From Acidobacteriota bacterium (GTDB taxonomy: Bacteria > Actinomycetota > AC-67), in the NCBI GenBank assembly GCA_016208485.1, contig JACQXY010000061.1, positions 14,330 through 78,329 of the forward strand: a DNA stretch of 64,000 nt, given 5' to 3'. The notes under the pieces were generated by a model. That model made no database searches. It had not been told where the DNA came from and saw only the letters and a list, made by a program, of their open reading frames with translations. The first letter of the stretch is position 1. Each line of letters opens with the position of its first letter. Positions 52,698-64,000 of this stretch are shown here, piece by piece. The position numbers and the translations under genes are program-made.

Positions 52698-53591
52698 TCA
52701 GTTGTCGGAGGGGCGCGGGGCGATCTTCAGCTTGGCGCTGACCTTCTCCATGTCGGTCTGGAACTTGAGCAGCACCCCGAGCGAGCGGCGCGCGGCGCCC
52801 TCGTCGAGCGTCGTCACCCCGAGGTGCAACAGCGTCCGGGCCCAGTCGAGCGACTCGGCGATCGAGGGCGCCTTCTTCAGCTCCATCTGCCGGATGCTCC
52901 GCACGACGCGCACGATCTGGTCGGCGAGGGTCTCGGGGATCTCCGGCACGCGCGAGAGAACGATCGCCTTCTCGCGCTCGATGTCGGGGTAGTCGAGGTA
53001 CAGGTAGAGACAGCGGCGCTTGAGCGCCTCCGACAGCTCGCGGGTGTTGTTCGAGGTGAGGACCACGAACGGGATCTGCCGGGCGACGACCGTCCCCATC
53101 TCCGGGATCGTCACCTGGAAGTCCGACAGCAGCTCGAGCAGCAGCCCCTCGAACTCGAAGTCGGTCTTGTCGATCTCGTCCACGAGCAGCGTCACCGGGT
53201 CGTCGCTCCGGATGGCCGACAGGAGCGGGCGCTCGAGCAGGAAGTCCTCGGTGAAGATGTTCGCCTCCACGTCCTCCCAACTCCATTCGCGATCGCGCTC
53301 GGCCTGGATCCTGAGAAGCTGCTTCTTGTAGTTCCACTCGTAGAGCGCTTTCGCCTCGTCCACGCCCTCGTAGCACTGGAGGCGGATGAGGCGCGACCCG
53401 GTCGAGGACGCGAGCGCTTTCGCCAGCTCGGTCTTGCCGGTGCCGGCCGGCCCCTCCACGAGGATCGGCTTGCCGAGGCGGCCGGCAAGGAAGACGACCG
53501 TCGCGATCGACTCGTCCGACAGGTACCCGGCGCCACCGAGGCGCTCGGAGACCTCCTCGACGCTTCCGAACGTCCGTCCGGCGCTAGCCAC
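52698..53591 (-). CDS. MoxR-family AAA+ ATPase (CoxD-like)
   Basis: Walker [17 protein letters not shown], Walker B LLVDEIDK, ~300 aa. Confidence 0.8.
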
Positions 53592-54866
53592 GGACCTGGC
53601 CCGTTCCGTGCACGATGTACTTGTAGGAGGTCAGCTCGGGCAGGGCCATCGGCCCGCGCGCGTGGAGCTTCTGGTTGGAGATCCCGATCTCGGCGCCGAA
53701 GCCGAACTCGCCGCCGTCGGCGAAACGCGTCGAGGCGTTCACCATCACGCAGGCGGAGTCGACTCCGGCGGCGAAGAGGCGCGCGGCCGCCTCGTCCTCG
53801 GTCACGATCGCCTCGGTGTGCCGGCTCCCGTAGCGGTTCACGTGCTCGACGGCCTCCTCGACGGATCCGACGACCTTCACCGCCATGATGAGATCGAGGT
53901 ACTCGGCATACCAGTCGTCCTCCGTCGCAGGCTTCATCGCGGCGGAGTAGCTGCGCGCCGCCTCGTCCCCGCGCAGCTCGACCCCGCGCCGGGTCAGCTC
54001 CTCGATCGCGCCCGGCAGGAACCGGTCGGCCAGCGCGCGGTGCACGAGCAGCGTCTCGGCCGCGTTGCAAACAGACGGCCGCTGCGTCTTCGAGTTCACG
54101 AGGATCGCCGTGGCCTTCCCAAGATCGGCCGCGGAGTCCACGTAGACGTGGCAGTTGCCGACCCCGGTCTCGATGACCGGGACGGTAGACTCCTCGACCA
54201 CCGTGCGGATCAAGTCGGCGCCGCCGCGCGGGATCAAGACGTCCACCAAGCCGTGCGCGCGCATCAGCTCCTTGACGCTCTCGCGGTCGGTCGATCGGAT
54301 GAGCTGGACCGAGTCGGGCGGCAGGCCGGCCAGCGTGCCGGCCTCGTCGAGGATGTCGGCGAGGACCGCGTTCGAGGAGATCGCGCTTCGCGAGCCGCGG
54401 AGCACGCAGGCGTTCCCGCTCTTCAGGCACAGCCCCGCGGCATCCACCGTCACGTTCGGGCGCGCCTCGTAGATGATGCCGACGACCCCGAGCGGAACGC
54501 GCACTTTCTCGATCGCAAGGCCGCTCGGCACGGTCCAGGAGGCGAGGGTCTCCCCCACGGGGTCCGGCAGGGTGACCACATGGCGCAGCCCGTTCGCCAT
54601 CTCGGCGATGCGGGCCGGAGTGAGCGTGAGGCGGTCGATGAGCGCGGCGGGAGTGCCCTCGGCCCTCGCGCGCTCGAGGTCCACGCCGTTCCCCTCGAGG
54701 ATCTCGTCCGCGCGCGCATCGAGCGCCGCGGCCATGGCCGCGAGCGCCGCGTCCTTCACCGCGGTCGCCGTCGTGGCGAGCGCGAACGCGGCTCGGCGCG
54801 CGCGCCCCGCGATCTCGAGAACCCCGCTGATGCCCGCCTCCCGGTGCCAACGGCGCGTGTCCCTCA
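53584..54866 (-). CDS. proA: glutamate-5-semialdehyde dehydrogenase (gamma-glutamyl phosphate reductase)
   Basis: Aligns with ProA throughout (…[31 protein letters not shown]…[10 protein letters not shown]…LHARGPMAL); start tentatively GTG at 54866. Confidence 0.8.
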
Positions 54867-54910
54867 CCGCGCCCGTGCAGAGACTATCGCAGATGCCGGA
54901 ACCTCGTGAT

Positions 54911-54926
54911 ACATGGTATACTATGT
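54911..54926. promoter_or_regulatory. vapBC promoter/operator: 16-bp near-palindrome ACATgGTATACtATGT containing -10 TATACT
   Basis: Seen in sequence; 14/16 symmetric around GTATAC; strongly AT-rich in a GC-rich context; vapB ATG lies 1-7 nt downstream (likely leaderless). Confidence 0.35.
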
Positions 54927-55165
54927 GCATGTTCACGGAGCGCACGCAGGTCTTGCTGAGCCCCGAGCAGCGGCGCGCCCTCGAGCGGCTGGCAAAGCGC
55001 CGCAAGGCCTCGGTCGGCGCCGTCGTCAGAGATGCCATCGAGGCCTACCTGACCCCGGGGGCCGGATCGAGATCGAAGGCGCTCGAGGCGCTTCTCGCGA
55101 TCGAGGCCCCCGTGGCGGACTGGGAGATCATGAAGGCCGAGATCGAGCAGGGAGCGCTCTCCTGA
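54923..55165 (+). CDS. vapB: ribbon-helix-helix antitoxin (VapB/CopG-like)
   Basis: M(CM)[43 protein letters not shown] fold signature; alternative ATG at 54929. Confidence 0.65.
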
Positions 55166-55596
55166 CGGTCTTCATCGACACCGCCCTGCCGATGTACGCG
55201 GCGGGCCGGGAGCACCCGTTGCGCGAGCCCTGCCGGGAGATCCTCGGACTCGCGGCGGCGGGGCGGCTTCCGGCCGTCACCTCCGCCGAGGTCGTCCGGG
55301 AGATCCTCCACCGGTTCGCGCACATCGGACGGCGCGACCTGGGGGCGGCGCTCGCCTCGGCGACCCTGGACCTCTTCGCTCCCGTCTTGCCGGTCACCCA
55401 CCGGATCGTGCAGCGCACGGCGGCCCTGGTCGAGCGATGCCCGCGCCTCTCCGCCCGCGATCTCGTGCACGTCGCCACGTGCCTGGAGGAAGGGATCGGG
55501 GCGATCGTGAGCCCCGACACGGGCTTCGACGAGGTCGGCGCGATCAGGCGGATCCCACCCGGGGACCGCAAGCTCCTGGCGCGCTACCTCCGGTAG
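55162..55596 (+). CDS. vapC: PIN-domain toxin VapC
   Basis: …[15 protein letters not shown]…VTSAEVVREILH…DLVHVATCLEEGIGAIVSPDTGFD with conserved PIN acidic residues; no canonical ATG/GTG/TTG upstream of the first conserved Asp so the start (CTG at 55162?) is uncertain. Confidence 0.6.
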   Translation: MTVFIDTALPMYAAGREHPLREPCREILGLAAAGRLPAVTSAEVVREILHRFAHIGRRDLGAALASATLDLFAPVLPVTHRIVQRTAALVERCPRLSARDLVHVATCLEEGIGAIVSPDTGFDEVGAIRRIPPGDRKLLARYLR

Positions 55597-55678
55597 AGTG
55601 TCCGAACCATCGCGTACATTGTTCTCCGGTCTATCTGCCGACTTGGGGTGCTTGATGGACGCTGCGGAGGGAAGCCGG

Positions 55679-58600
55679 ATGCGGTTCAGCCCCGGCCAGA
55701 TCCTCACCGGCCCTCTTTTCAACGAGCCGATGCGGGTCGAGAACGTGCAGGCCGGCGGCCAAGCAAGCTGGGTGGTGGGGCTCGTCGGCCTGCACTCCGA
55801 GCGCTTCCGCAAGGTGACCCTCAGCCCAGACGACGTCGAGCAACTGACGATCCTCGACGCGCGGCACTCATACGCGGGGGATGGACGGCTTCTGCGCCTC
55901 GGCCTCCAGGCATACGCCCTAGGAATCGCCTACGAATTCGACCCCTACTTTGGACTCTCTATCTCGCGCGTAGATCCGCTGCCGCACCAGCTCGAAGCCG
56001 TCTACGACTACCTGCTCAGGCTGGCGCGGGTGCGGTTCCTGCTCGCGGATGACGCCGGGGCCGGGAAGACCATCATGGCAGGGCTGCTGGTCCGAGAGCT
56101 CGAGCTCCGGGGTCTAGCCGAGCGCATCCTGATCGTCTGCCCGGCAAACCTTGCTTTCCAGTGGCAGCGCGAGCTGAAGGAGAAGTTCGATACCACGTTT
56201 CTCGTGATGAAGGGCCAAGACATCCGAGACCAGTTCGGCATGAACCAGTGGCTAGAACGGGACCGCGTCATCACGTCGCTCGACTTGGCGAAGCGCGAGG
56301 ACATCTTGCCGGGACTGCGCCAAGTCCACTGGGACCTTGTCATCGTGGACGAGGCCCATCGAATGTCGGCTGCCGACGAGTCGCACAAGAGCATGCGCTA
56401 CCGGCTCGGCGAGCTGCTGCGCGACGTCTCCGATCACATGCTCCTTCTCACGGCCACTCCGCACAAGGGCGACCCGCAGAACTTCAGTCTGTTTCTCCAG
56501 CTCCTCGACGCGGACGCCTACGCCGACGTGAAGTCGATCCGCGAGGCGATGGACCGCCGGCGGGCGCCCTTCTACTTGCGCCGCACCAAGGAAGCGATGG
56601 TCTACTTCCCCGAGCGGCGGCCGGACGGCTCCTGGGCTGCCGAGAAGATCTTCACCAAGCGAATCCCGCACACGGTGGACTTTCTGATCGACGGTGCGGA
56701 GTTCGATCTCTACCGCGAGGTGACGCGCTTTGTGAAGCGCGAGAGTGCCCGCGCGGCGGCCGAGGGCGAGGATCCCCGCGCTCGGGCGATCGGCTTCCTG
56801 ATGTCCCTCTACCAGCGCCGGCTCGCCTCGAGCACGTACGCGATGAAGCGATCACTCGAGAATCGCGCCCGACGCCTTGAAGACGGGCTCAAGCGCGCGC
56901 AGGACCTTGCCCGCCAAGCGCCGCCGGATATCCCCGATCCGGACGAGCTGGACGAGATGGAGGAAGGTGAGAGGGAGCAACTCGAGGCCATGATCGAGGC
57001 GATCACTCTCGCGGGAAACGCCGACCAAGTGCGCCAGGAGGTCCAGGAGCTGCGGCGGCTCGCCGCGCAGGCCCAAGCCGTGGTGGACGCGGGAGTAGAG
57101 GCCAAGCTTTCGGAGCTGAAGGATCTGCTCCAAGAAGAGGGCTTCTTCGATCATCCTGACCAGCGCTTGCTCCTGTTCACCGAGTTCAAGGACACCCTCG
57201 ACTACCTCGTGGAGCGCCTGGAGTCCTGGGGCTTCCGGGTCGGCTGCATCCACGGGGGCATGAAACCTGGCTCGCGCAACGAGCCCGGCACGCGCTTGTA
57301 CGCCGAGCAGCAGTTCCGTGAGGGCGAGATCCAGATCCTCGTCGCGACCGAGGCCGCGGGCGAGGGGATCAACCTGCAGGTCTGCAACATCCTCTTCAAC
57401 TACGACATCCCGTGGAACCCGAACCGTCTCGAGCAACGGATGGGCCGCATCCACCGTTACGGCCAGCGCAAGGATTGCTTGATCTTCAACTTCGTGGCGA
57501 CGAACACGATCGAAGGCCGCGTCCTCCAGCGGCTGCTCGAGAAACTCCAGGAGATCCGCGACGCGCTCGACGACGATGCGGTTTTCAACGTGGTCGGCGA
57601 GATTCTGCCGGCCGCCCACGTCGAACGCGTGCTGCGCGACTACTACGCCGGACGCCTCGGAGACGCCGACCTCGAGGAGCGCCTGCTCCGCGACGTGGAT
57701 GAGGGGCAATTCCGGGCCATCTGCCAGAACGCCTTAGAGGGACTGGCGAGCAAGAGGCTCAACCTGGAGATGCTGATCGAGCGTCGCGCGCGGGCACAAG
57801 AGCAACGCGTTGTTCCTGAGACCATCGCCCGATTCATGCGTGAAGCATCCGAGTTCGTGCCGCTCAGCCTGAGGATGGTTCCCAGCCTTGCCCACACCTT
57901 CGAGCCTGCCCGAACGCCCTCCGTTCTACGGCGCCACGAGAAGGACCCGGACTGGAAACTCCCGGCTCTCGCCGACCGCTATCCGCGCTGCTCCACCGAC
58001 CGGGAGACGGCAGAGACCCAGAAGCTGGAGTGGGTCACGCCCGGCCATCCACTATTCGAGGCGATCCGGCGCCACACGCACGCACGGGCGCTGGACGCCC
58101 TCGGCCAAGGTGCGACGTTCCATTCGCTCCAGCATGAACGTCCGGCGCGCATCGACTTCTATCGCGCCCGGGCAGTGGACGGACTCGGACAGGTCGTCCA
58201 TGAGCGGCTCTTCGCCGTGGAGATCGACGAGGACTCGGAGCCTCGGCTCCAAGAGCCCAGCTTGCTCGGGAACTTCGCGCCCGCAATCGCGCCGGCCGAG
58301 ATGCCTGCGGTGGCCGCCCTTCCAGAAGCGACGGCCTGGCTCCACGAACAGGCGCTGGCGCCGTTCCTCGACGAGACGCGGCAGGACCGCATGTCCGAGG
58401 TTGAGCGGATCGCCGCGCACGTCGAGCTGTCGCTGACGGAATTGCTCCAGCGTGCCGACGAGGAGATCGGCCGTTCGGCCTCAGACGTCGAGCAGAAGCT
58501 CGCCGGTGCCGAAGGGCGGCTCGCCATGGCGGAAACGCGTCACGCGGAACTGCTCACGCGACGCGATCGACGCCGGACCGATCTTGAGCACCAGCGTTCG

Positions 58601-59101
58601 CTGACCCTCCAAGCGGTTGAGCGGCTCGCGAGCGTCCTCATCTTGCCGCACCCCGAACGCGAGGCGCCCGATGTGCGACGCCTCAGGCCGAACTTCGAAA
58701 CCGAGGCCACCGCCATGCGCGTGGTGATGGAACATGAGCGGGCGCAGGGTCGTCAGGTCTACGACGTCTCCAAGAAGAACCTGGGCTACGACATCACGAG
58801 CCTCGACCTTGCCTCCGGTGAGTTGCGCCTCATCGAGGTCAAGGGCCTCGGCGCGGCGACCGGCACGATCCTGCTGACGCCCAACGAGCGGCGCGTCGCA
58901 GAGGATCGACCCGACTGCTTCTGGCTCTACGTCGTCACCGACTGCGACAATGCTCCGCGACTCCAGGAGCCGATCCGCGATCCGGCGCGGCTCGACTGGA
59001 ACGAAGTGCGAAAGGTGGCGCACTACTACCTCTCGGTGAACGCGATGACGAAACCCATGCAGGTGCGCGAAGAGCCGTTGCCGTACGGGAAGGCCCCCTG
59101 A
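55679..59101 (+). CDS. SNF2-family helicase (DEXDc + HELICc) with long coiled-coil linker and C-terminal DUF3883 restriction-endonuclease-like domain
   Basis: ATG with SD GGAGGGAAG (alternative upstream GTG 55598/ATG 55655); motifs LLADDAGAGKT (I), DLVIVDEAHR (II), LLLTATPHKG (III), …ILVATEAAGEGINLQ…QRMGRIHRYGQ (V/VI); C-terminus …RLIEVKGLGAATGTILLTPNERRVAEDRPDCFWLYVVTDC…. Confidence 0.75.
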   Translation: MRFSPGQILTGPLFNEPMRVENVQAGGQASWVVGLVGLHSERFRKVTLSPDDVEQLTILDARHSYAGDGRLLRLGLQAYALGIAYEFDPYFGLSISRVDPLPHQLEAVYDYLLRLARVRFLLADDAGAGKTIMAGLLVRELELRGLAERILIVCPANLAFQWQRELKEKFDTTFLVMKGQDIRDQFGMNQWLERDRVITSLDLAKREDILPGLRQVHWDLVIVDEAHRMSAADESHKSMRYRLGELLRDVSDHMLLLTATPHKGDPQNFSLFLQLLDADAYADVKSIREAMDRRRAPFYLRRTKEAMVYFPERRPDGSWAAEKIFTKRIPHTVDFLIDGAEFDLYREVTRFVKRESARAAAEGEDPRARAIGFLMSLYQRRLASSTYAMKRSLENRARRLEDGLKRAQDLARQAPPDIPDPDELDEMEEGEREQLEAMIEAITLAGNADQVRQEVQELRRLAAQAQAVVDAGVEAKLSELKDLLQEEGFFDHPDQRLLLFTEFKDTLDYLVERLESWGFRVGCIHGGMKPGSRNEPGTRLYAEQQFREGEIQILVATEAAGEGINLQVCNILFNYDIPWNPNRLEQRMGRIHRYGQRKDCLIFNFVATNTIEGRVLQRLLEKLQEIRDALDDDAVFNVVGEILPAAHVERVLRDYYAGRLGDADLEERLLRDVDEGQFRAICQNALEGLASKRLNLEMLIERRARAQEQRVVPETIARFMREASEFVPLSLRMVPSLAHTFEPARTPSVLRRHEKDPDWKLPALADRYPRCSTDRETAETQKLEWVTPGHPLFEAIRRHTHARALDALGQGATFHSLQHERPARIDFYRARAVDGLGQVVHERLFAVEIDEDSEPRLQEPSLLGNFAPAIAPAEMPAVAALPEATAWLHEQALAPFLDETRQDRMSEVERIAAHVELSLTELLQRADEEIGRSASDVEQKLAGAEGRLAMAETRHAELLTRRDRRRTDLEHQRSLTLQAVERLASVLILPHPEREAPDVRRLRPNFETEATAMRVVMEHERAQGRQVYDVSKKNLGYDITSLDLASGELRLIEVKGLGAATGTILLTPNERRVAEDRPDCFWLYVVTDCDNAPRLQEPIRDPARLDWNEVRKVAHYYLSVNAMTKPMQVREEPLPYGKAP

Positions 59102-59117
59102 TGGCGGAACGGATCCG

Positions 59118-60602
59118 ATGAGCGAGCGCATCTTCGTGAGCAGCGTGCAGAAGGAACTGGAGGCCGAGCGACGGGCCGTGCGGGCCTTCGTTCGCGGGGA
59201 TGCGCTGCTGCGGCGGTTCTTCGATGTCTTTCTCTTCGAAGACCTCGCGGCATCCGATCGGCGGGCGGACGATGTGTACCTCGACGAGGTGGGACGCTGC
59301 GCCGTCTACCTCGGACTTCTCGGCGACGAGTACGGCAGCGAGGACGCGGCGGGGGCATCGCCGACTGAGCGCGAGTTCGACCACGCCACAGCCCTGGGCA
59401 AGACGCGCCTCGTCTTCGTCAGGGGCGTTGACCACGACGGCCGGCATCCGAAGATGCGCGCTCTGGCCGCCAAGGCCGGAGCGCAGCTTATCCGCAGGCG
59501 TTTCAGCGGGATTTCAGACCTCACCGCGGCCCTCTACGCCAGCCTCGTCGAGCATCTGGAGCGGACGGGCAGGCTTAGCACGCGGCCCTTCGACGCTGCG
59601 GCCTGTCCGGACGCCACGTTGGAGGACGTCTCGCCCCAGAAGATGGAATGGTTCATCGGCATCGCCCGCCGCGAGCGGCAGTATCCTCTCCGCGAGGCTA
59701 CACCGCCGGTCGAGGCTCTGGCCCACCTGAACCTGCTCGACGCAGGCCAGCCGACCCGCGCAGCCGTCCTCCTATTCGGGCGGGAGCCGCAACGCTTTCT
59801 CCTCAGCTCCGAGATCAAGTGCCTGCACTTCCACGGCACCGAGGTGCGCAAGCCCATCCCGTCGTACCAGGTGTACAACGGAACCGTGTTCGAGTTGGTG
59901 GACCAGGCGGCGGACTTCGTCATGTCCAAGATCGCCCGGGCCGTCGGCACCCGCGCCCACGGCCCGGAGGCACCTGTCGAGTACGAGCTGCCCCGAGAGG
60001 CCGTGGTCGAGGCCATCGTGAACGCCGTCGCACACCGCGACTACACGAGCAACGCCAGTGCGCAGGTGATGCTCTTCGCGGACCGGCTGGAGGTCTGGAA
60101 CCCCGGAGAACTCCCCCCCACCCTGACGCTGCCGCAGTTGCGCATACCGCATCCCTCCATTCCCCACAACCCGCTCATCAGCGAGCCGCTCTTCCTTGCC
60201 CGGTACATCGAACGAGCCGGCACCGGCACACTGGACATGATCGCCCGGTGCCGGGAAATGGGCTTGCCCGAACCGGAGTTCCGGCAGGACGGTGGACAGT
60301 TCGTCATGACCTTGTGGCGCGACTGGCTCACGGAGGAAGTTCTGGCCTCCCTGGCACTGAATGAACGCCAGGAGAAGGCGGTCGGCTTCATCCGGCGAGA
60401 AGGCCGCCTGACCAACCTCCAGTACCAGGAGATCACGGGCGCGAGCCGGGCCACCGCGAAGCGGGACCTCGAGGAGCTTATGGGCAAGGGTGTGCTAGTC
60501 CGCATGGGCACCGGGCGCGCTGCCCATTATCTGGTTGCGAAGAAACGGCTCAAGAAAGGCTCAAATGGCTCACCGGAGGGTGCGGACGGAAATGGCTCAT
60601 AA
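59118..60602 (+). CDS. fusion protein DUF4062 + Schlafen/AlbA_2 divergent-ATPase + HATPase_c_4 + C-terminal wHTH (RecG-C-terminal-like 'transcriptional regulator' family)
   Basis: N-terminus MSERIFVSSVQKELEAERRAVRAFVRG matches DUF4062 start consensus; middle …AAVLLFGREPQRFLLSSEIKCLHFHG… (AlbA_2); …PLISEPLFLARYIERAGTGTLDMIARCREMGLPEPEF (HATPase_c_4); C-terminal HTH; TAA stop. Confidence 0.6.
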   Translation: MSERIFVSSVQKELEAERRAVRAFVRGDALLRRFFDVFLFEDLAASDRRADDVYLDEVGRCAVYLGLLGDEYGSEDAAGASPTEREFDHATALGKTRLVFVRGVDHDGRHPKMRALAAKAGAQLIRRRFSGISDLTAALYASLVEHLERTGRLSTRPFDAAACPDATLEDVSPQKMEWFIGIARRERQYPLREATPPVEALAHLNLLDAGQPTRAAVLLFGREPQRFLLSSEIKCLHFHGTEVRKPIPSYQVYNGTVFELVDQAADFVMSKIARAVGTRAHGPEAPVEYELPREAVVEAIVNAVAHRDYTSNASAQVMLFADRLEVWNPGELPPTLTLPQLRIPHPSIPHNPLISEPLFLARYIERAGTGTLDMIARCREMGLPEPEFRQDGGQFVMTLWRDWLTEEVLASLALNERQEKAVGFIRREGRLTNLQYQEITGASRATAKRDLEELMGKGVLVRMGTGRAAHYLVAKKRLKKGSNGSPEGADGNGS

Positions 60603-60662: not shown

Positions 60663-60797
60663 ATGATCCCCAAGGAGTGCAAGCGCCTGGCTGAGGTGGA
60701 CTTCCCGATTGCCGAGGCGCCGCGGCATGCGGCGTGGGAGAAGTCGATCCGGCAGGGACATCCGAGCGCACCTGCCTCGAGAACTCAGACCCCATGA
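60663..60797 (+). pseudogene. duplicated 5' fragment (~35 codons) of the DUF1156 methyltransferase gene; short ORF whose stop overlaps the DUF3644 start
   Basis: 60663-60767 is ~89% identical at DNA level to 61867-61971 (protein MIPKECKRLAEVDFPIAEAPRHAAWEKSIRQGHPS vs MIPKECKRLAEVDFPIAEVSRHAAREKSIRHGHPS); homology ends ~nt 105 and the ORF terminates with TGA overlapping ATG 60794. Confidence 0.5.
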
Positions 60798-61870
60798 GAG
60801 GGCTGCCCTACGACGTCAAGGCGCTCGTCGAGAAGGCGAGGGAGACCGCCCTGCTCGCAGTGGAGACCTACAACCGCCCCACGGCGAGCTTCCGGTCAGG
60901 CGCGTACGTAGTCCTGATGATCATCGCTTGGACGTCGCTCTTTCACGCGATGTTCCTTCGCAAGGGAATCAAGCCGTACTGCCGAAAGCCCGGCTCAAGA
61001 CGGTACGAGCGGATCGATGGTGAGCCTCGGCGCTGGGAGCTCGGAGAGTGCCTGCGGCAACACTACAAGGCGAGTAACCCTGCCACCCGGCGGAATCTCG
61101 AGTTCTTCATTGGGCTCCGCAACAAGATCGAGCATCGTTCGCTTGCGCAGATCGACCCAGAAGTCTTCGGCGAATGCCAAGCGATGTTGCTGAACTTCGA
61201 GTCCCTGCTCGTTTCGGAGTTTGGTGATCGGTACGCGATTCGTGGCGGTCTCACGTTCGCCTTGCAGTTCTCACGGGTCGTTCCGACGAGTTCATCGGCG
61301 CCGGCCGCCAATACTGCTGGTAGAGCGTTCAAGGCGATCAAGCAATACGTGGACGCCTTCCGGTCAAGTCTGAGCGCGGACGTGCAGAACGACCTGGCCT
61401 ACAGCTTCAAGGTCTTCCTCGTTCCGAAGATCGGCAATCACGCGAGCAAGGACTCGGTTGCCGTGGAATGGATCAAATACCATCCCTCGAAGCCTGAGGA
61501 GATGAGGCACTACGAGAAGGTAGTGGCGATGATCAAGCCCAAGGAGGTGCAGATCGCGAATCTGGGCCGCCTAAAGCCGACGCAAGTCGCGCGGCAAGTT
61601 GCGGTCAAGCTCGGCAGGCGGTTCACGAATTACGACCACAAGCTTTGCTACGAGCATTTCACGATCCGGCCGCCAGGTGGGGCACCCGATCCGTCGGCAT
61701 GCAACCCTCAGTTCTGTGTCTACGACGATCTCCACAAGGACTACTGCTACACGCCGCAGTGGGTTGACTTCCTTGGGGAGAGACTGGCTGATCCTGCGCT
61801 CTACGCGAACATCATCACGAGAAGGAAGGCCACCGCGAAACCCATTGAAACCAGGAGCGCAACCGCATGA
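60794..61870 (+). CDS. DUF3644-family (HEPN-like, MAE_28990/MAE_18760-type) protein
   Basis: MRGLPYDVKALVEKARETALLAVETYNRPTASFRSGAYVVLMIIAWTSLFHAMFLRKGIKPYCR… matches my recollection of the DUF3644 N-terminal consensus; lower GC (~58%); ATGA overlaps at both ends. Confidence 0.55.
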   Translation: MRGLPYDVKALVEKARETALLAVETYNRPTASFRSGAYVVLMIIAWTSLFHAMFLRKGIKPYCRKPGSRRYERIDGEPRRWELGECLRQHYKASNPATRRNLEFFIGLRNKIEHRSLAQIDPEVFGECQAMLLNFESLLVSEFGDRYAIRGGLTFALQFSRVVPTSSSAPAANTAGRAFKAIKQYVDAFRSSLSADVQNDLAYSFKVFLVPKIGNHASKDSVAVEWIKYHPSKPEEMRHYEKVVAMIKPKEVQIANLGRLKPTQVARQVAVKLGRRFTNYDHKLCYEHFTIRPPGGAPDPSACNPQFCVYDDLHKDYCYTPQWVDFLGERLADPALYANIITRRKATAKPIETRSATA

Positions 61871-64000
61871 TCCCGAAGGAGTGCAAGCGCCTTGCCGAGG
61901 TGGACTTCCCGATCGCCGAGGTGTCGCGGCACGCGGCGCGGGAGAAGTCGATCCGGCACGGGCACCCGAGCACGCTGCACCTGTGGTGGGCCCGGCGGCC
62001 GCTGGCGTCGAGCCGCGCGGTGCTGCTGGGGCTACTCTGGCCGGATCCATGCGATCCGCTGTGCCCGCCAGAGTTCAAGGCGAAGGCTCGAGAGTTGCTG
62101 CCGCGGGTGCAGGGCGGGGGCGCGCCAGGCCCAACTAACAATGATCTACGGCAATCGCTGCTCAAGTTTATCGGTGCGTTTGCGAACTGGGACCTTGCCG
62201 CGAACGGCGTTTACCTGGAGGTCAGCCGCGCCCTGGTGAAGGCGGCGCACGGCGAGGAGCCACCGCTGGTCGTGGATCCGTTCGCGGGGGGCCGATCGAT
62301 CCCGTTGGAGGCTCTGCGGCTTGGCTGCGATGCCTTCGCGAGCGACTTGAACCCCGTCGCCTGCCTGATCCTCAAGGTGATGCTCGAGGACATCCCGCGC
62401 CACGGGCCGAAGCTCGCCGAGGAGCTGCGCCGCGTCGGGACGGAGATCAAACGGCAGGCGGAGAAGGAGTTGGCGGATCTCTACCCCAAGGATCCGGACG
62501 GCGCGACGCCGATCGCCTACCTCTGGGCGCGGACCGTGCGCTGCGAGTCGCCGAACTGCGGCGCGGAGATCCCGCTCGTGCGCTCGTTCTGGCTCTGCAA
62601 GAAGGCGAACCGCCGGCGGGCGCTCAGGCACCGCGTCGTGCGGCCCGCGGGCGAGCCGCCGCGCGTCGAGTTCGAGATAGTCGAGCCGAAGGCTGAGGAG
62701 GAGGTGCCCGGCGGGACGGTGACGCGCGCGAAGGCCACGTGCGTCGCGTGCGGCGCGGTGCTCCCGCCCGAGCGCGTGCGGCCGCAGCTCGCGGCACAGC
62801 GCGGCGGGGCCGACGTCGTCTTCGGCGCCGAGGGCCTACGCACGGCCGGGGCGAGGATGCTGGCCGTTGTGACGCTCCGGCCCGACGAGCAGGGACGGCA
62901 CTATCGGCTGTCAACCGAGCGCGACTACGAGGGCACCCGCAACGCGCAGGAGCGGCTCGCGGCGATCCTCGGCGCGTGGGAGCGTGACGGAAAGATGGGC
63001 CTCCGCCCGGTGCCGGATGAGCCGCTGCCGCCGATCGGCACGCTCGGCTTTCGCGTGCAGCGGTACGGCATGCTCCAGTGGGGCGACCTCTTCACGGCGC
63101 GGCAGAAGACTGCGCTGGTCACGTTGTCGGTGCGGATGGCCCGAGAGAACGGAGACGTCATTGAGGCAATGGCGTCTTCTCTTTCGAGACTTGCGGACAA
63201 GAACGCATCACTCGCAGTCTGGAATCAGATCGGCGAGAAGATTGAGCACGTCTTCGGGCGTCAGGCACTCCCAATCGTCTGGGACTTCGCAGAGGTGCCC
63301 ATATTTTCGAACTCTACCGGTAATTTCGGCAGCGGTGTCGATCTCGTCCGAAAAGTGTTAGAGGCTTGGCCTGGCTCACTTGCAGGGCAAGTTCAACTCG
63401 CTGACGCTACCGAGCACCCACTCCCCGACCAGACCGCAACCGTCTGGTTCACCGACCCGCCCTATTACGATGCGGTCCCGTACGCCGACCTCTCGGACTT
63501 CTTCTTCGTCTGGCTGAAGCGCGCGCTACCGGGACGAGCAGTCTTGCGCGATCCGTTCGATCCGGCCAACCCGCTTTCCCCCAAACGGCGCGAAGCCGTG
63601 CAGGACGAGACGAAACGAGACAACGGTCGGTCGAAGGACCGAGCGTGGTTCGAGGAGACGATGGCCCGTGCCTTCGCCGAAGGCCGACGGGTACTGCGAG
63701 AGGACGGCGTGGGCTCCGTGGTTTTTGCCCACAAGACGACGGAAGGCTGGGAAGCGCTCCTCTCCGGGATGATTCGGGGCGGCTGGACGATCACCGGCTC
63801 GTGGCCCATCGCCACGGAGCGCCCCGGGCGACTGCGCGCACAGGAGTCTGCCGCCCTCGCCACCAGCGTCCACCTCATCTGCCGCCCCCGCCCTGTGGAT
63901 GCAGGCGTCGGTGACTGGGCCGACGTTCTGCGCGAGCTGCCGAACCGCGTCGGCGACTGGATGGAGCGCCTGCAGGGCGAAGGTATTCGCGGCGCCGACC
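61867..64000 (+). CDS. DUF1156-domain N6-adenine DNA methyltransferase with Zn-ribbon (COG1743 family), 3' end beyond window
   Basis: Open frame from ATG 61867 to the window end; N-terminal DUF1156 (…HGHPSTLHLWWARRP…VDPFAGGRSIPLEALRLGCDAFASDLNP = SAM-binding motif I), CxxC…CxxC Zn-ribbon (CESPNCG…CVACG), catalytic motif IV DPPY (VWFTDPPYYD). Confidence 0.75.
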   Translation, partial: MIPKECKRLAEVDFPIAEVSRHAAREKSIRHGHPSTLHLWWARRPLASSRAVLLGLLWPDPCDPLCPPEFKAKARELLPRVQGGGAPGPTNNDLRQSLLKFIGAFANWDLAANGVYLEVSRALVKAAHGEEPPLVVDPFAGGRSIPLEALRLGCDAFASDLNPVACLILKVMLEDIPRHGPKLAEELRRVGTEIKRQAEKELADLYPKDPDGATPIAYLWARTVRCESPNCGAEIPLVRSFWLCKKANRRRALRHRVVRPAGEPPRVEFEIVEPKAEEEVPGGTVTRAKATCVACGAVLPPERVRPQLAAQRGGADVVFGAEGLRTAGARMLAVVTLRPDEQGRHYRLSTERDYEGTRNAQERLAAILGAWERDGKMGLRPVPDEPLPPIGTLGFRVQRYGMLQWGDLFTARQKTALVTLSVRMARENGDVIEAMASSLSRLADKNASLAVWNQIGEKIEHVFGRQALPIVWDFAEVPIFSNSTGNFGSGVDLVRKVLEAWPGSLAGQVQLADATEHPLPDQTATVWFTDPPYYDAVPYADLSDFFFVWLKRALPGRAVLRDPFDPANPLSPKRREAVQDETKRDNGRSKDRAWFEETMARAFAEGRRVLREDGVGSVVFAHKTTEGWEALLSGMIRGGWTITGSWPIATERPGRLRAQESAALATSVHLICRPRPVDAGVGDWADVLRELPNRVGDWMERLQGEGIRGAD

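Follow-up and report, generated by a model that had tools for sequence, protein, structure and literature searches.

What does a protein do that carries a DUF4062 domain at one end, a winged helix at the other and an ATPase-like domain in between, and that is encoded within a defense locus? The question is raised by a 494-amino acid (aa) open reading frame (ORF), here called gene X, in 64,000 nucleotides (nt) of DNA from an Acidobacteriota bacterium (GenBank assembly GCA_016208485.1, contig JACQXY010000061.1, positions 14,330 to 78,329 of the forward strand; placed in Actinomycetota, AC-67, by GTDB). We refer to this whole stretch as the window and number its first nucleotide as position 1; labels consisting of P or L and digits denote database proteins and loci. 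A sequence-only reading of the window had described gene X as an unusual fusion of DUF4062 to a Schlafen/AlbA_2, HATPase_c_4 and helix-turn-helix (HTH) protein, and had proposed a sensor, an abortive-infection effector or a regulator. We found that the observation was correct in part and that the interpretation was partly supported, with the evidence favoring the abortive-infection effector. We estimate a probability of roughly 0.6 that gene X encodes a single-protein abortive-infection NAD+ hydrolase (NADase), with a GHKL domain as its switch and a winged HTH (wHTH) as its trigger, that forms a second layer in an Hma operon.

Gene X carries a DUF4062 head in place of a Schlafen nuclease

Gene X is a genuine gene. 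ORF calling and translation reproduced the frame, its length and its TAA end as originally described, and a protein 100% identical to the product (P0001) is on a record from an Acidobacteria metagenome-assembled genome, for which the sole contig returned spans 6.4 kb. We scored 6827 database homologs. The top 120 matches were 67-100% identical to the gene X product, similar in length and identical in architecture. The G+C content (GC) at third codon positions was 0.83, like that of the neighboring genes, and an AlphaFold2 (AF2) model of the protein had a mean predicted local distance difference test score (pLDDT) of 79.5.

Pfam profiles confirmed three of the four domains that had been named. 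DUF4062 (PF13271; renamed NIR in 2026 preprints) matched aa 4-90 (E 3.9e-20; 72.3 bits against a cut-off of 24.7) and HATPase_c_4 (PF13749) matched aa 314-399 (E 7.5e-20). Matches to winged-HTH profiles were weak and fell at aa 417-471 (DIP2311-like_C, E 1e-5; HTH_DeoR, E 3e-3). The fourth domain, the Schlafen/AlbA_2 domain, was not there: SLFN_AlbA_2 (PF04326) gave no match to the whole protein at E≤0.01 or to aa 133-329 at E≤10.

The position of the missing domain was found by comparison with relatives, which we searched as representatives of 50%-identity clusters. Full-length relatives of gene X extended down to about 35% identity, and other relatives aligned only from about aa 145 onward. 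In two of the latter (P0230 and P0167), SLFN_AlbA_2 occupies aa 9-129 and precedes HATPase_c_4 and an HTH. P0167 was 47% identical to the gene X product over aa 143-487 (E 7e-121), with no similarity upstream of aa 143. In a multiple alignment, the Schlafen motif E-x4-E-x-K ('ESQSLEFK') aligned where gene X has its DUF4062 motifs. The Schlafen domain thus sits where gene X has DUF4062, which argues for replacement rather than capping. Addition of DUF4062 onto a Schlafen protein was rejected because AlbA_2 was absent even at the relaxed thresholds. These comparisons indicate an effector swap: the chassis of linker, GHKL domain and wHTH is shared, and it bears DUF4062 where the Schlafen nuclease would be. 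In a neighbor-joining tree of the chassis (91 NIR-type and 6 SLFN-type proteins, no support values) the two types were not resolved from each other, with 11 divergent NIR-type tips grouping with the SLFN tips; such a tree fits either one swap or several.

Three long proteins, P0165 (897 aa), P0220 (884 aa) and P0121 (2918 aa), have at least two head-plus-GHKL units in tandem. In P0165 a weak match to TIR_2 precedes the DUF4062 unit, and P0121 mixes in SLFN units. These proteins may be genuine fusions, or they may be tandem arrays whose genes were not split in gene calling. We did not rely on TIR_2 as a third type of head on the chassis; the P0165 match scored 24.5 bits against a Pfam cut-off of 28.

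The DUF4062 head is a relative of known NAD+ glycohydrolases

In the AF2 model, the head has a five-stranded alpha/beta, flavodoxin-like TIR/NDT fold, in which helices flank a parallel sheet. A profile of the gene X family retrieved KpSwz, the DUF4062 protein of the Swarozyc system (PDB 10wc_A), with E 3.8e-7 over aa 4-174. The alanine of the KpSwz E97A construct ('SFTEKAFDYA') aligned with E86 of gene X ('SPTEREFDHA'), and the motif S-x-T-E-x-E-(Y/F) around the catalytic glutamate is present as SPTEREF, with E86-F87. The preprints give the counterpart glutamates as E97 in KpSwz, E108 in PsAvs2 and E87 (followed by Y88) in Eva01. E86 was invariant in 120 of 120 close homologs and in all 17 DUF4062-type members of a divergent alignment (A1). 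Residues S81, Q11 and R18 were also invariant in the 120 close homologs, and S81 and R18 were at least 90% conserved in the divergent set.

DUF4062 was described in the sequence-only reading as a domain that normally caps STAND/NACHT-type NTPases. It is no longer only that. According to the 2026 preprints, of which there are three, it is a TIR-like NAD+ glycohydrolase, with one glutamate required in each case. Avs2, Swarozyc, Evangelion, Vulcan and Vesta all use it as their effector, and human TEP1 contains an active one. Swarozyc, Evangelion and Vulcan are single-protein systems and Vesta has two genes. In the same sources, DUF4062 proteins of four architectures deplete NAD+ and mediate abortive defense that depends on the glutamate. 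By analogy with these homologs, studied by others, the head of gene X is predicted to be an NAD+ hydrolase.

The head might instead be a nucleotide or nucleoside N-glycosidase that acts on another substrate, for example by CMP/dCMP hydrolysis or base exchange, and that depletes a different pool. The Avs2 head was originally annotated as a CMP hydrolase. We consider this reading quite unlikely: all the DUF4062 domains reported to have been assayed to date (KpSwz, PsAvs2, Vulcan, VstA and TEP1) hydrolyze or deplete NAD+, and the gene X head is a relative of KpSwz at the sequence level, with the same catalytic glutamate.

The chassis combines a predicted ATP switch with a variable winged helix

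The chassis of gene X has the N-box residues of a Bergerat/GHKL ATP-binding site, E298 and N302, both of them invariant. H306, R307, the N-P-G of the G1 region and G368/G370 were likewise invariant in the gene X family. A 2026 preprint on Schlafen-Argonautes names the pairing of SLFN and PF13749 domains 'Schlatpase' and describes the PF13749 domain of RzAgo, in which E314 and N318, with the same E-x3-N spacing, bind Mg-ATP (10.64898/2026.05.29.728809). The RzAgo domain binds and hydrolyzes ATP through these two residues, and binding leads to tetramerization, by which the active nuclease is assembled. The same text states that Schlatpase proteins are mostly small with a C-terminal HTH, and that some are encoded in type I restriction-modification (R-M) operons. 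By motif and position rather than by direct alignment, E298/N302 appear to be equivalent to E314/N318. Because homologs studied by others behave in this way, we predict ATP-driven oligomerization for the GHKL domain of gene X. PADLOC profiles (pAgo, Aga and SoFic) matched only the chassis; the pAgo match spans aa 213-400 because Schlafen-Argonautes bear the same PF13749 GHKL module.

The C-terminal HTH is modeled by AF2 as three helices followed by a beta hairpin, and a profile search matched the C-terminus of the Coxiella Fic protein 8cil (E 4e-5). The type of wHTH varies among homologs (DIP2311-like_C, Fic-like_C or HTH_20/24). In a tblastn search of a collection with one genome per species, similarity to gene X ended at about aa 401-415 in 43 of the 80 loci that were kept.

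The architecture is widespread

The fusion had been regarded as unusual, and this did not hold. In addition to the top 120 matches, 869 representatives of 50%-identity clusters match gene X at E≤1e-30, and the architecture is present in all 80 kept genome loci, where similarity starts at aa 1-5. The 80 loci span about 20 phyla, as read from record titles, including three methanogen lineages among the archaea. Full-length copies that are 52-58% identical to gene X adjoin parB/rep on Legionella plasmids. The architecture is common, yet it is not a characterized family of transcriptional regulators. Among phage records there were only partial matches to the chassis (24-32% identity), and these gave no sign that gene X is phage-borne.

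The copies on an L. pneumophila plasmid (NZ_CP021275.1; L090, 6989-8560) and an L. anisa plasmid (L091, 6989-8500) encode DUF4062, HATPase_c_4 and Fic-like_C and have a conserved position on the parB/rep side. On seven Legionella plasmids of about 130 kb (H1-H7, including NC_006365.1 of strain Paris), the gene X homolog is in two pieces that are annotated as two coding sequences, and it may be disrupted.

NCBIfam has no family and PADLOC (2023) has no model for gene X, so annotation by these libraries leaves it unnamed. The DUF4062-GHKL fusion is not mentioned in the accessible text of the DUF4062, pSlfn and Schlatpase preprints, whose figures or supplements may list it. Each half of the protein belongs to a known kind, and defense systems are well known to swap effectors. 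A NIR head on a Schlatpase-type GHKL-wHTH chassis is not described in any of the texts searched.

Gene X homologs are often encoded within restriction-modification and related operons

We analyzed the neighborhoods of gene X homologs in 85 non-redundant loci, in which ORFs were called, three neighbors on each side were clustered, and representatives were annotated with Pfam and PADLOC. An R-M-like gene was present within three genes in 44 of the 85 loci, and in 39 of the 73 that had genes called on both sides. Type I R-M genes were found in 26 loci, with the recurrent order hsdM-hsdS-X-hsdR-ygjP. Twelve loci contained a DUF1156 methyltransferase, an HmaA-like helicase or DUF499. A methyltransferase-X-DUF499 arrangement was seen on an annotated contig. 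Gene X is therefore best described as a passenger of Hma and not a core part, since fewer than one sixth of its loci are in such systems. Other neighbors were type III or IIG methyltransferases and, in four loci, an OLD-like ATPase. In L002 the homolog is within BREX-1, between brxC and pglX, and some copies are among housekeeping genes. Schlafen-GHKL-wHTH genes have themselves been reported as embedded in BREX and in BREX-related, DUF499-centered loci, in at least 1017 taxa.

The spacing of the genes was tight. The homolog was within 30 nt of a co-directional neighbor in 43 of the 85 loci, and 17 of these had a 4-nt start/stop overlap upstream. In three loci (L040, 8748-14697; L055, 8658-14724; L086, 8646-14736) the gene is between hsdS and hsdR, and 4 nt are shared between its start and the stop of hsdS. 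It also overlaps hsdR by 4 nt in L040 and L086, and in L055 the two genes are 2 nt apart; a gene for a YgjP-like metallopeptidase follows hsdR. The operon position in these three loci and in L047 is that of PrrC, the anticodon nuclease that is encoded between hsdS and hsdR of the EcoprrI type Ic R-M locus and serves there as a latent suicidal effector behind the R-M system. In sequence, gene X is unrelated to PrrC, which is an ABC-ATPase-like tRNA nuclease.

A true SLFN-GHKL paralog adjoins gene X in 11 of the 85 loci, as confirmed for L061 and L065. In these two loci (L061, 9989-11506, 11503-12915 and 13107-14354; L065, 3397-4899 and 5186-6595), the gene for the DUF4062-type protein is followed by one or two SLFN_AlbA_2-HATPase_c_4 paralogs, with a 4-nt overlap in the L061 array. 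We considered a recent tandem duplication in L061 and rejected it: the SLFN neighbor is 32% identical to the gene X product of the window (aa 156-393), which argues against such an event, with the window protein rather than the L061 homolog as the reference.

These contexts bear on whether gene X could be a transcriptional regulator of its host operon (Hma, type I R-M or BREX), with the wHTH bound to an operator and the other domains acting as ligand sensors. Its position inside defense operons, its C-terminal wHTH of DeoR/MarR/DIP2311 type, and source records that name homologs 'predicted HTH transcriptional regulator' would fit. Against this, the enzyme-type sites E86 and E298/N302 are invariant, and they would be superfluous in a pure regulator. 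Conservation is lowest in the wHTH, which is swapped between subtypes. The gene is in the middle of operons, with 4-nt overlaps, rather than at a divergent promoter, and the same protein accompanies widely differing systems and is also found by itself on plasmid backbones. Finally, the related DUF4062 and Schlafen fusions are effectors. We therefore view a role as a regulator as very unlikely.

Gene X could also serve mainly the mobile elements that carry it, as a module for plasmid or island maintenance (addiction) or for exclusion. Of the 90 plasmids that match gene X, 48 are conjugative; the position next to parB/rep is conserved on the Legionella plasmids, and IS21, Y1 transposase and resolvases are near the gene in some loci. 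There is, however, no cognate antitoxin-like partner, and most of the loci are chromosomal R-M or defense operons. Carriage on plasmids is typical of true defense genes too, for example Evangelion. We regard this as the least probable of the explanations considered.

A proposed mechanism

We propose that gene X acts as an abortive-infection NADase in the following way. The NIR head (aa 1-150, with E86), once switched on, would deplete NAD+ and stop the infected cell. The GHKL-like domain (aa ~152-402, with E298/N302) would bind ATP and form dimers or tetramers, in which the heads would become active or be released from inhibition. The winged helix (aa 405-475) would be an exchangeable module for sensing or partner binding that sets the trigger. 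The GHKL-wHTH chassis normally bears a Schlafen tRNase; in gene X, the RNase would have been swapped for an NADase. In the window, where gene X occupies the hmaA-hmaB hotspot of an Hma locus (DUF499-centered, BREX-related), it would provide a suicidal second line behind a methylation-based first line. Stand-alone copies, on Legionella plasmid backbones and in housekeeping surroundings, argue that the protein works alone.

Several points weigh against this proposal. About half of the loci have no recognizable R-M neighbor within three genes; the association with defense is therefore strong and not universal. Fold searches, with the whole AF2 model as the query, matched the head to CMP hydrolases and deoxyribosyltransferases as well as to TIR NADases, and on these model-based matches the substrate may be something other than NAD+. 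The GHKL domain has an atypical G1 box, with W-N-P-G in place of D-x-G-x-G, so ATP binding is predicted solely from the N-box and the related protein. The predicted template modeling score of the AF2 model was 0.55, and the relative placement of the domains is therefore unreliable. In the texts searched, we found no functional test of the DUF4062-GHKL-wHTH architecture, and the figures of the DUF4062 preprints may already list it.

The operon positions suggest a more specific role as a guard of methylation-based immunity. The wHTH, as the exchangeable part, would dock on an intact R-M, Hma or BREX complex and the protein would remain silent; a phage anti-restriction factor that disabled or remodeled the complex would lead to ATP binding, oligomerization and NADase activity. 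The 4-nt overlaps with hsdS/hsdR or hmaA suggest stoichiometric production from within the operon. We propose, by analogy, that the logic would be like that of PrrC or PARIS, with depletion of NAD+ as the output. This is a tentative idea, and on balance we think it doubtful. Where Schlafen-type paralogs are adjacent, as in L061 and L065, mixed GHKL oligomers might cause loss of NAD+ and cleavage of tRNA together.

The locus in the window

The positions of gene X, its parts and its neighbors are listed in Table 1. The gene is in a defense locus, as the sequence-only reading had it, and follows the helicase gene directly: the hmaA stop codon is 16 nt ahead of the ATG. Its placement next to the methyltransferase gene was less accurate, with a methyltransferase remnant and a DUF3644 gene in between. 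The gap between hmaA and hmaB is a documented hotspot where defense genes are inserted, and about 66.5% of hma loci have insertions between genes. HmaC (DUF499) was not found in the annotated 48-64 kb of the window, and we expect it beyond the window end.

Table 1. Positions of gene X, its predicted parts and the neighboring genes in the window.
Feature	Position in window	Strand	Residues	Description and evidence
507-aa ORF	53386-54909			First in the locus; no Pfam, PADLOC or NCBIfam match
PIN-domain gene	54913-55596			Starts 3 nt after the 507-aa ORF; ends 1 nt before hmaA
HmaA-type SNF2 helicase with C-terminal NOV_C nuclease domain	55598-59101	+		Pfam SNF2-rel_dom, Helicase_C, NOV_C; PADLOC HmaA, E 8.5e-174
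Gene X, whole	59118-60602	+	494 aa	DUF4062 (NIR) head, GHKL-like ATPase domain, winged helix; ATG start, TAA stop; ORF and translation, Pfam, P0001, AF2
DUF4062/NIR TIR-like head	59118-59567	+	1-150	Five beta strands and five helices, the last a long helix (132-150)
E86 codon (GAG), predicted catalytic Glu	59373-59375	+	86	Motif S81-P-T-E-R-E86-F; conservation and KpSwz alignment
Helical linker and Bergerat/GHKL-like ATP-binding domain	59571-60323	+	152-402	Chassis common to Schlafen-GHKL ('Schlatpase') proteins
N-box E298-A-I-V-N302, predicted Mg-ATP ligands	60009-60023	+	298-302	Invariant in alignments A1 and A2; spacing as in RzAgo
C-terminal wHTH	60330-60542	+	405-475	The family's most variable module; presumed to sense or to bind a partner
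Disordered, low-complexity tail	60543-60599	+	476-494	pLDDT <50 for aa 479-494; not conserved
44-codon remnant of DUF1156 methyltransferase 5' end	60663-60797	+		Stop at 60795-60797; translation parallels the true start
DUF3644 gene, PADLOC candidate defense gene PDC-S19	60794-61870	+		PF12358, E 1.6e-51; PDC-S19, E 2.6e-131
DUF1156 N6-methyltransferase, HmaB type	61867-64000	+		Open frame off the window end; PF06634, E 1.4e-21 (61867-63999); matches the L006 methyltransferase

The remnant and the true methyltransferase start share a 105-nt direct repeat with 90% identity (60663-60767 and 61867-61971). This points to exchange of a cassette; the repeat looks like the product of recombination within the 5' end of the methyltransferase gene and not like a new target-site duplication. 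DUF3644 is also encoded directly downstream of the gene X homolog in an unrelated locus (L012, 9839-10864), and fragments are near the homolog in L080 (4797-5252 and 8500-9072). The two genes may recurrently pair, or they may share a hotspot. At the other end of the locus, the tight packing of the 507-aa ORF, the PIN gene and hmaA suggests that the first two form another effector pair embedded in this operon.

The composition of the region only partly matched what had been claimed. Gene X is the sole ORF that ends in TAA among the 35 long ORFs of the window (25 TGA, 9 TAG), so the remark that this stop is rare was correct. Its GC (66.5%) had been called lower than that of the flanks; it is below that of the window (69.7%) but not below that of its immediate neighbors, the helicase gene (65.6%) and the downstream DUF3644 gene (59.3%). 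The low-GC unit is the entire block at 55.6-64 kb (65.7%), not gene X alone.

Relationship to known systems and implications

Gene X is closest in its chassis to the Schlatpase/pSlfn proteins of the 'HisKinase-HTH' type (SLFN_AlbA_2, PF13749 GHKL and HTH; COG2865-type; PDB 3LMM, DIP2311). It shares their N-box residues and their habit of residing in BREX, BREX-related and type I R-M operons; in the window, it is flanked by the HmaA helicase-nuclease and DUF1156 methyltransferase of a type-1 DUF499-centered, BREX-related (Hma) system. It differs in lacking the Schlafen nuclease and its E-x4-(E/D)-x-K motif, and has the DUF4062 TIR-like head instead. Their output is cleavage of tRNA, whereas the predicted output of gene X is depletion of NAD+.

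In its head, gene X resembles Swarozyc (KpSwz; PDB 10wc, 11cq and 11cv), which has a homologous DUF4062 domain with the same catalytic glutamate. Each is a single protein with a head, a long helix and a wHTH-containing domain, and abortive NADase logic is reported for Swarozyc. KpSwz is 326 aa long, and its profile alignment ends at aa 174 of gene X (KpSwz residue 180), leaving the AUX part unmatched. Since only aa 4-174 of the family profile align, the KpSwz AUX part is unrelated to gene X, and KpSwz is without a GHKL domain. The Swarozyc trigger, a phage portal protein, is not transferable to gene X. Avs2-NIR, Vulcan (NIR-HEAT), Vesta and Evangelion also combine an N-terminal NIR effector with a variable sensing part, and these systems are reported to be enriched near defense genes and horizontally spread. 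For sensing or oligomerization they rely on a STAND NTPase, HEAT repeats, a small ligand domain or a short AUX region, none of which is described in the preprint texts as GHKL-wHTH. By description, Evangelion (Eva01) has a short AUX region where gene X has a GHKL-wHTH part of 340 aa.

Gene X thus joins two lines of defense proteins, the DUF4062/NIR NADases, which are shared with human TEP1, and the Schlafen-GHKL 'Schlatpase' module. The GHKL-wHTH chassis is an effector-independent unit, on which either an RNase or a predicted NADase can be mounted. With NADase activity as the read-out, the trigger of the common stand-alone Schlatpase-HTH proteins would become easy to test for. Given the large size of the family, its presence in about 20 phyla, its PrrC-like position in type I R-M operons and its occurrence in Hma and BREX hotspots, the gene X family is probably a common, unrecognized second layer of restriction-type immunity.

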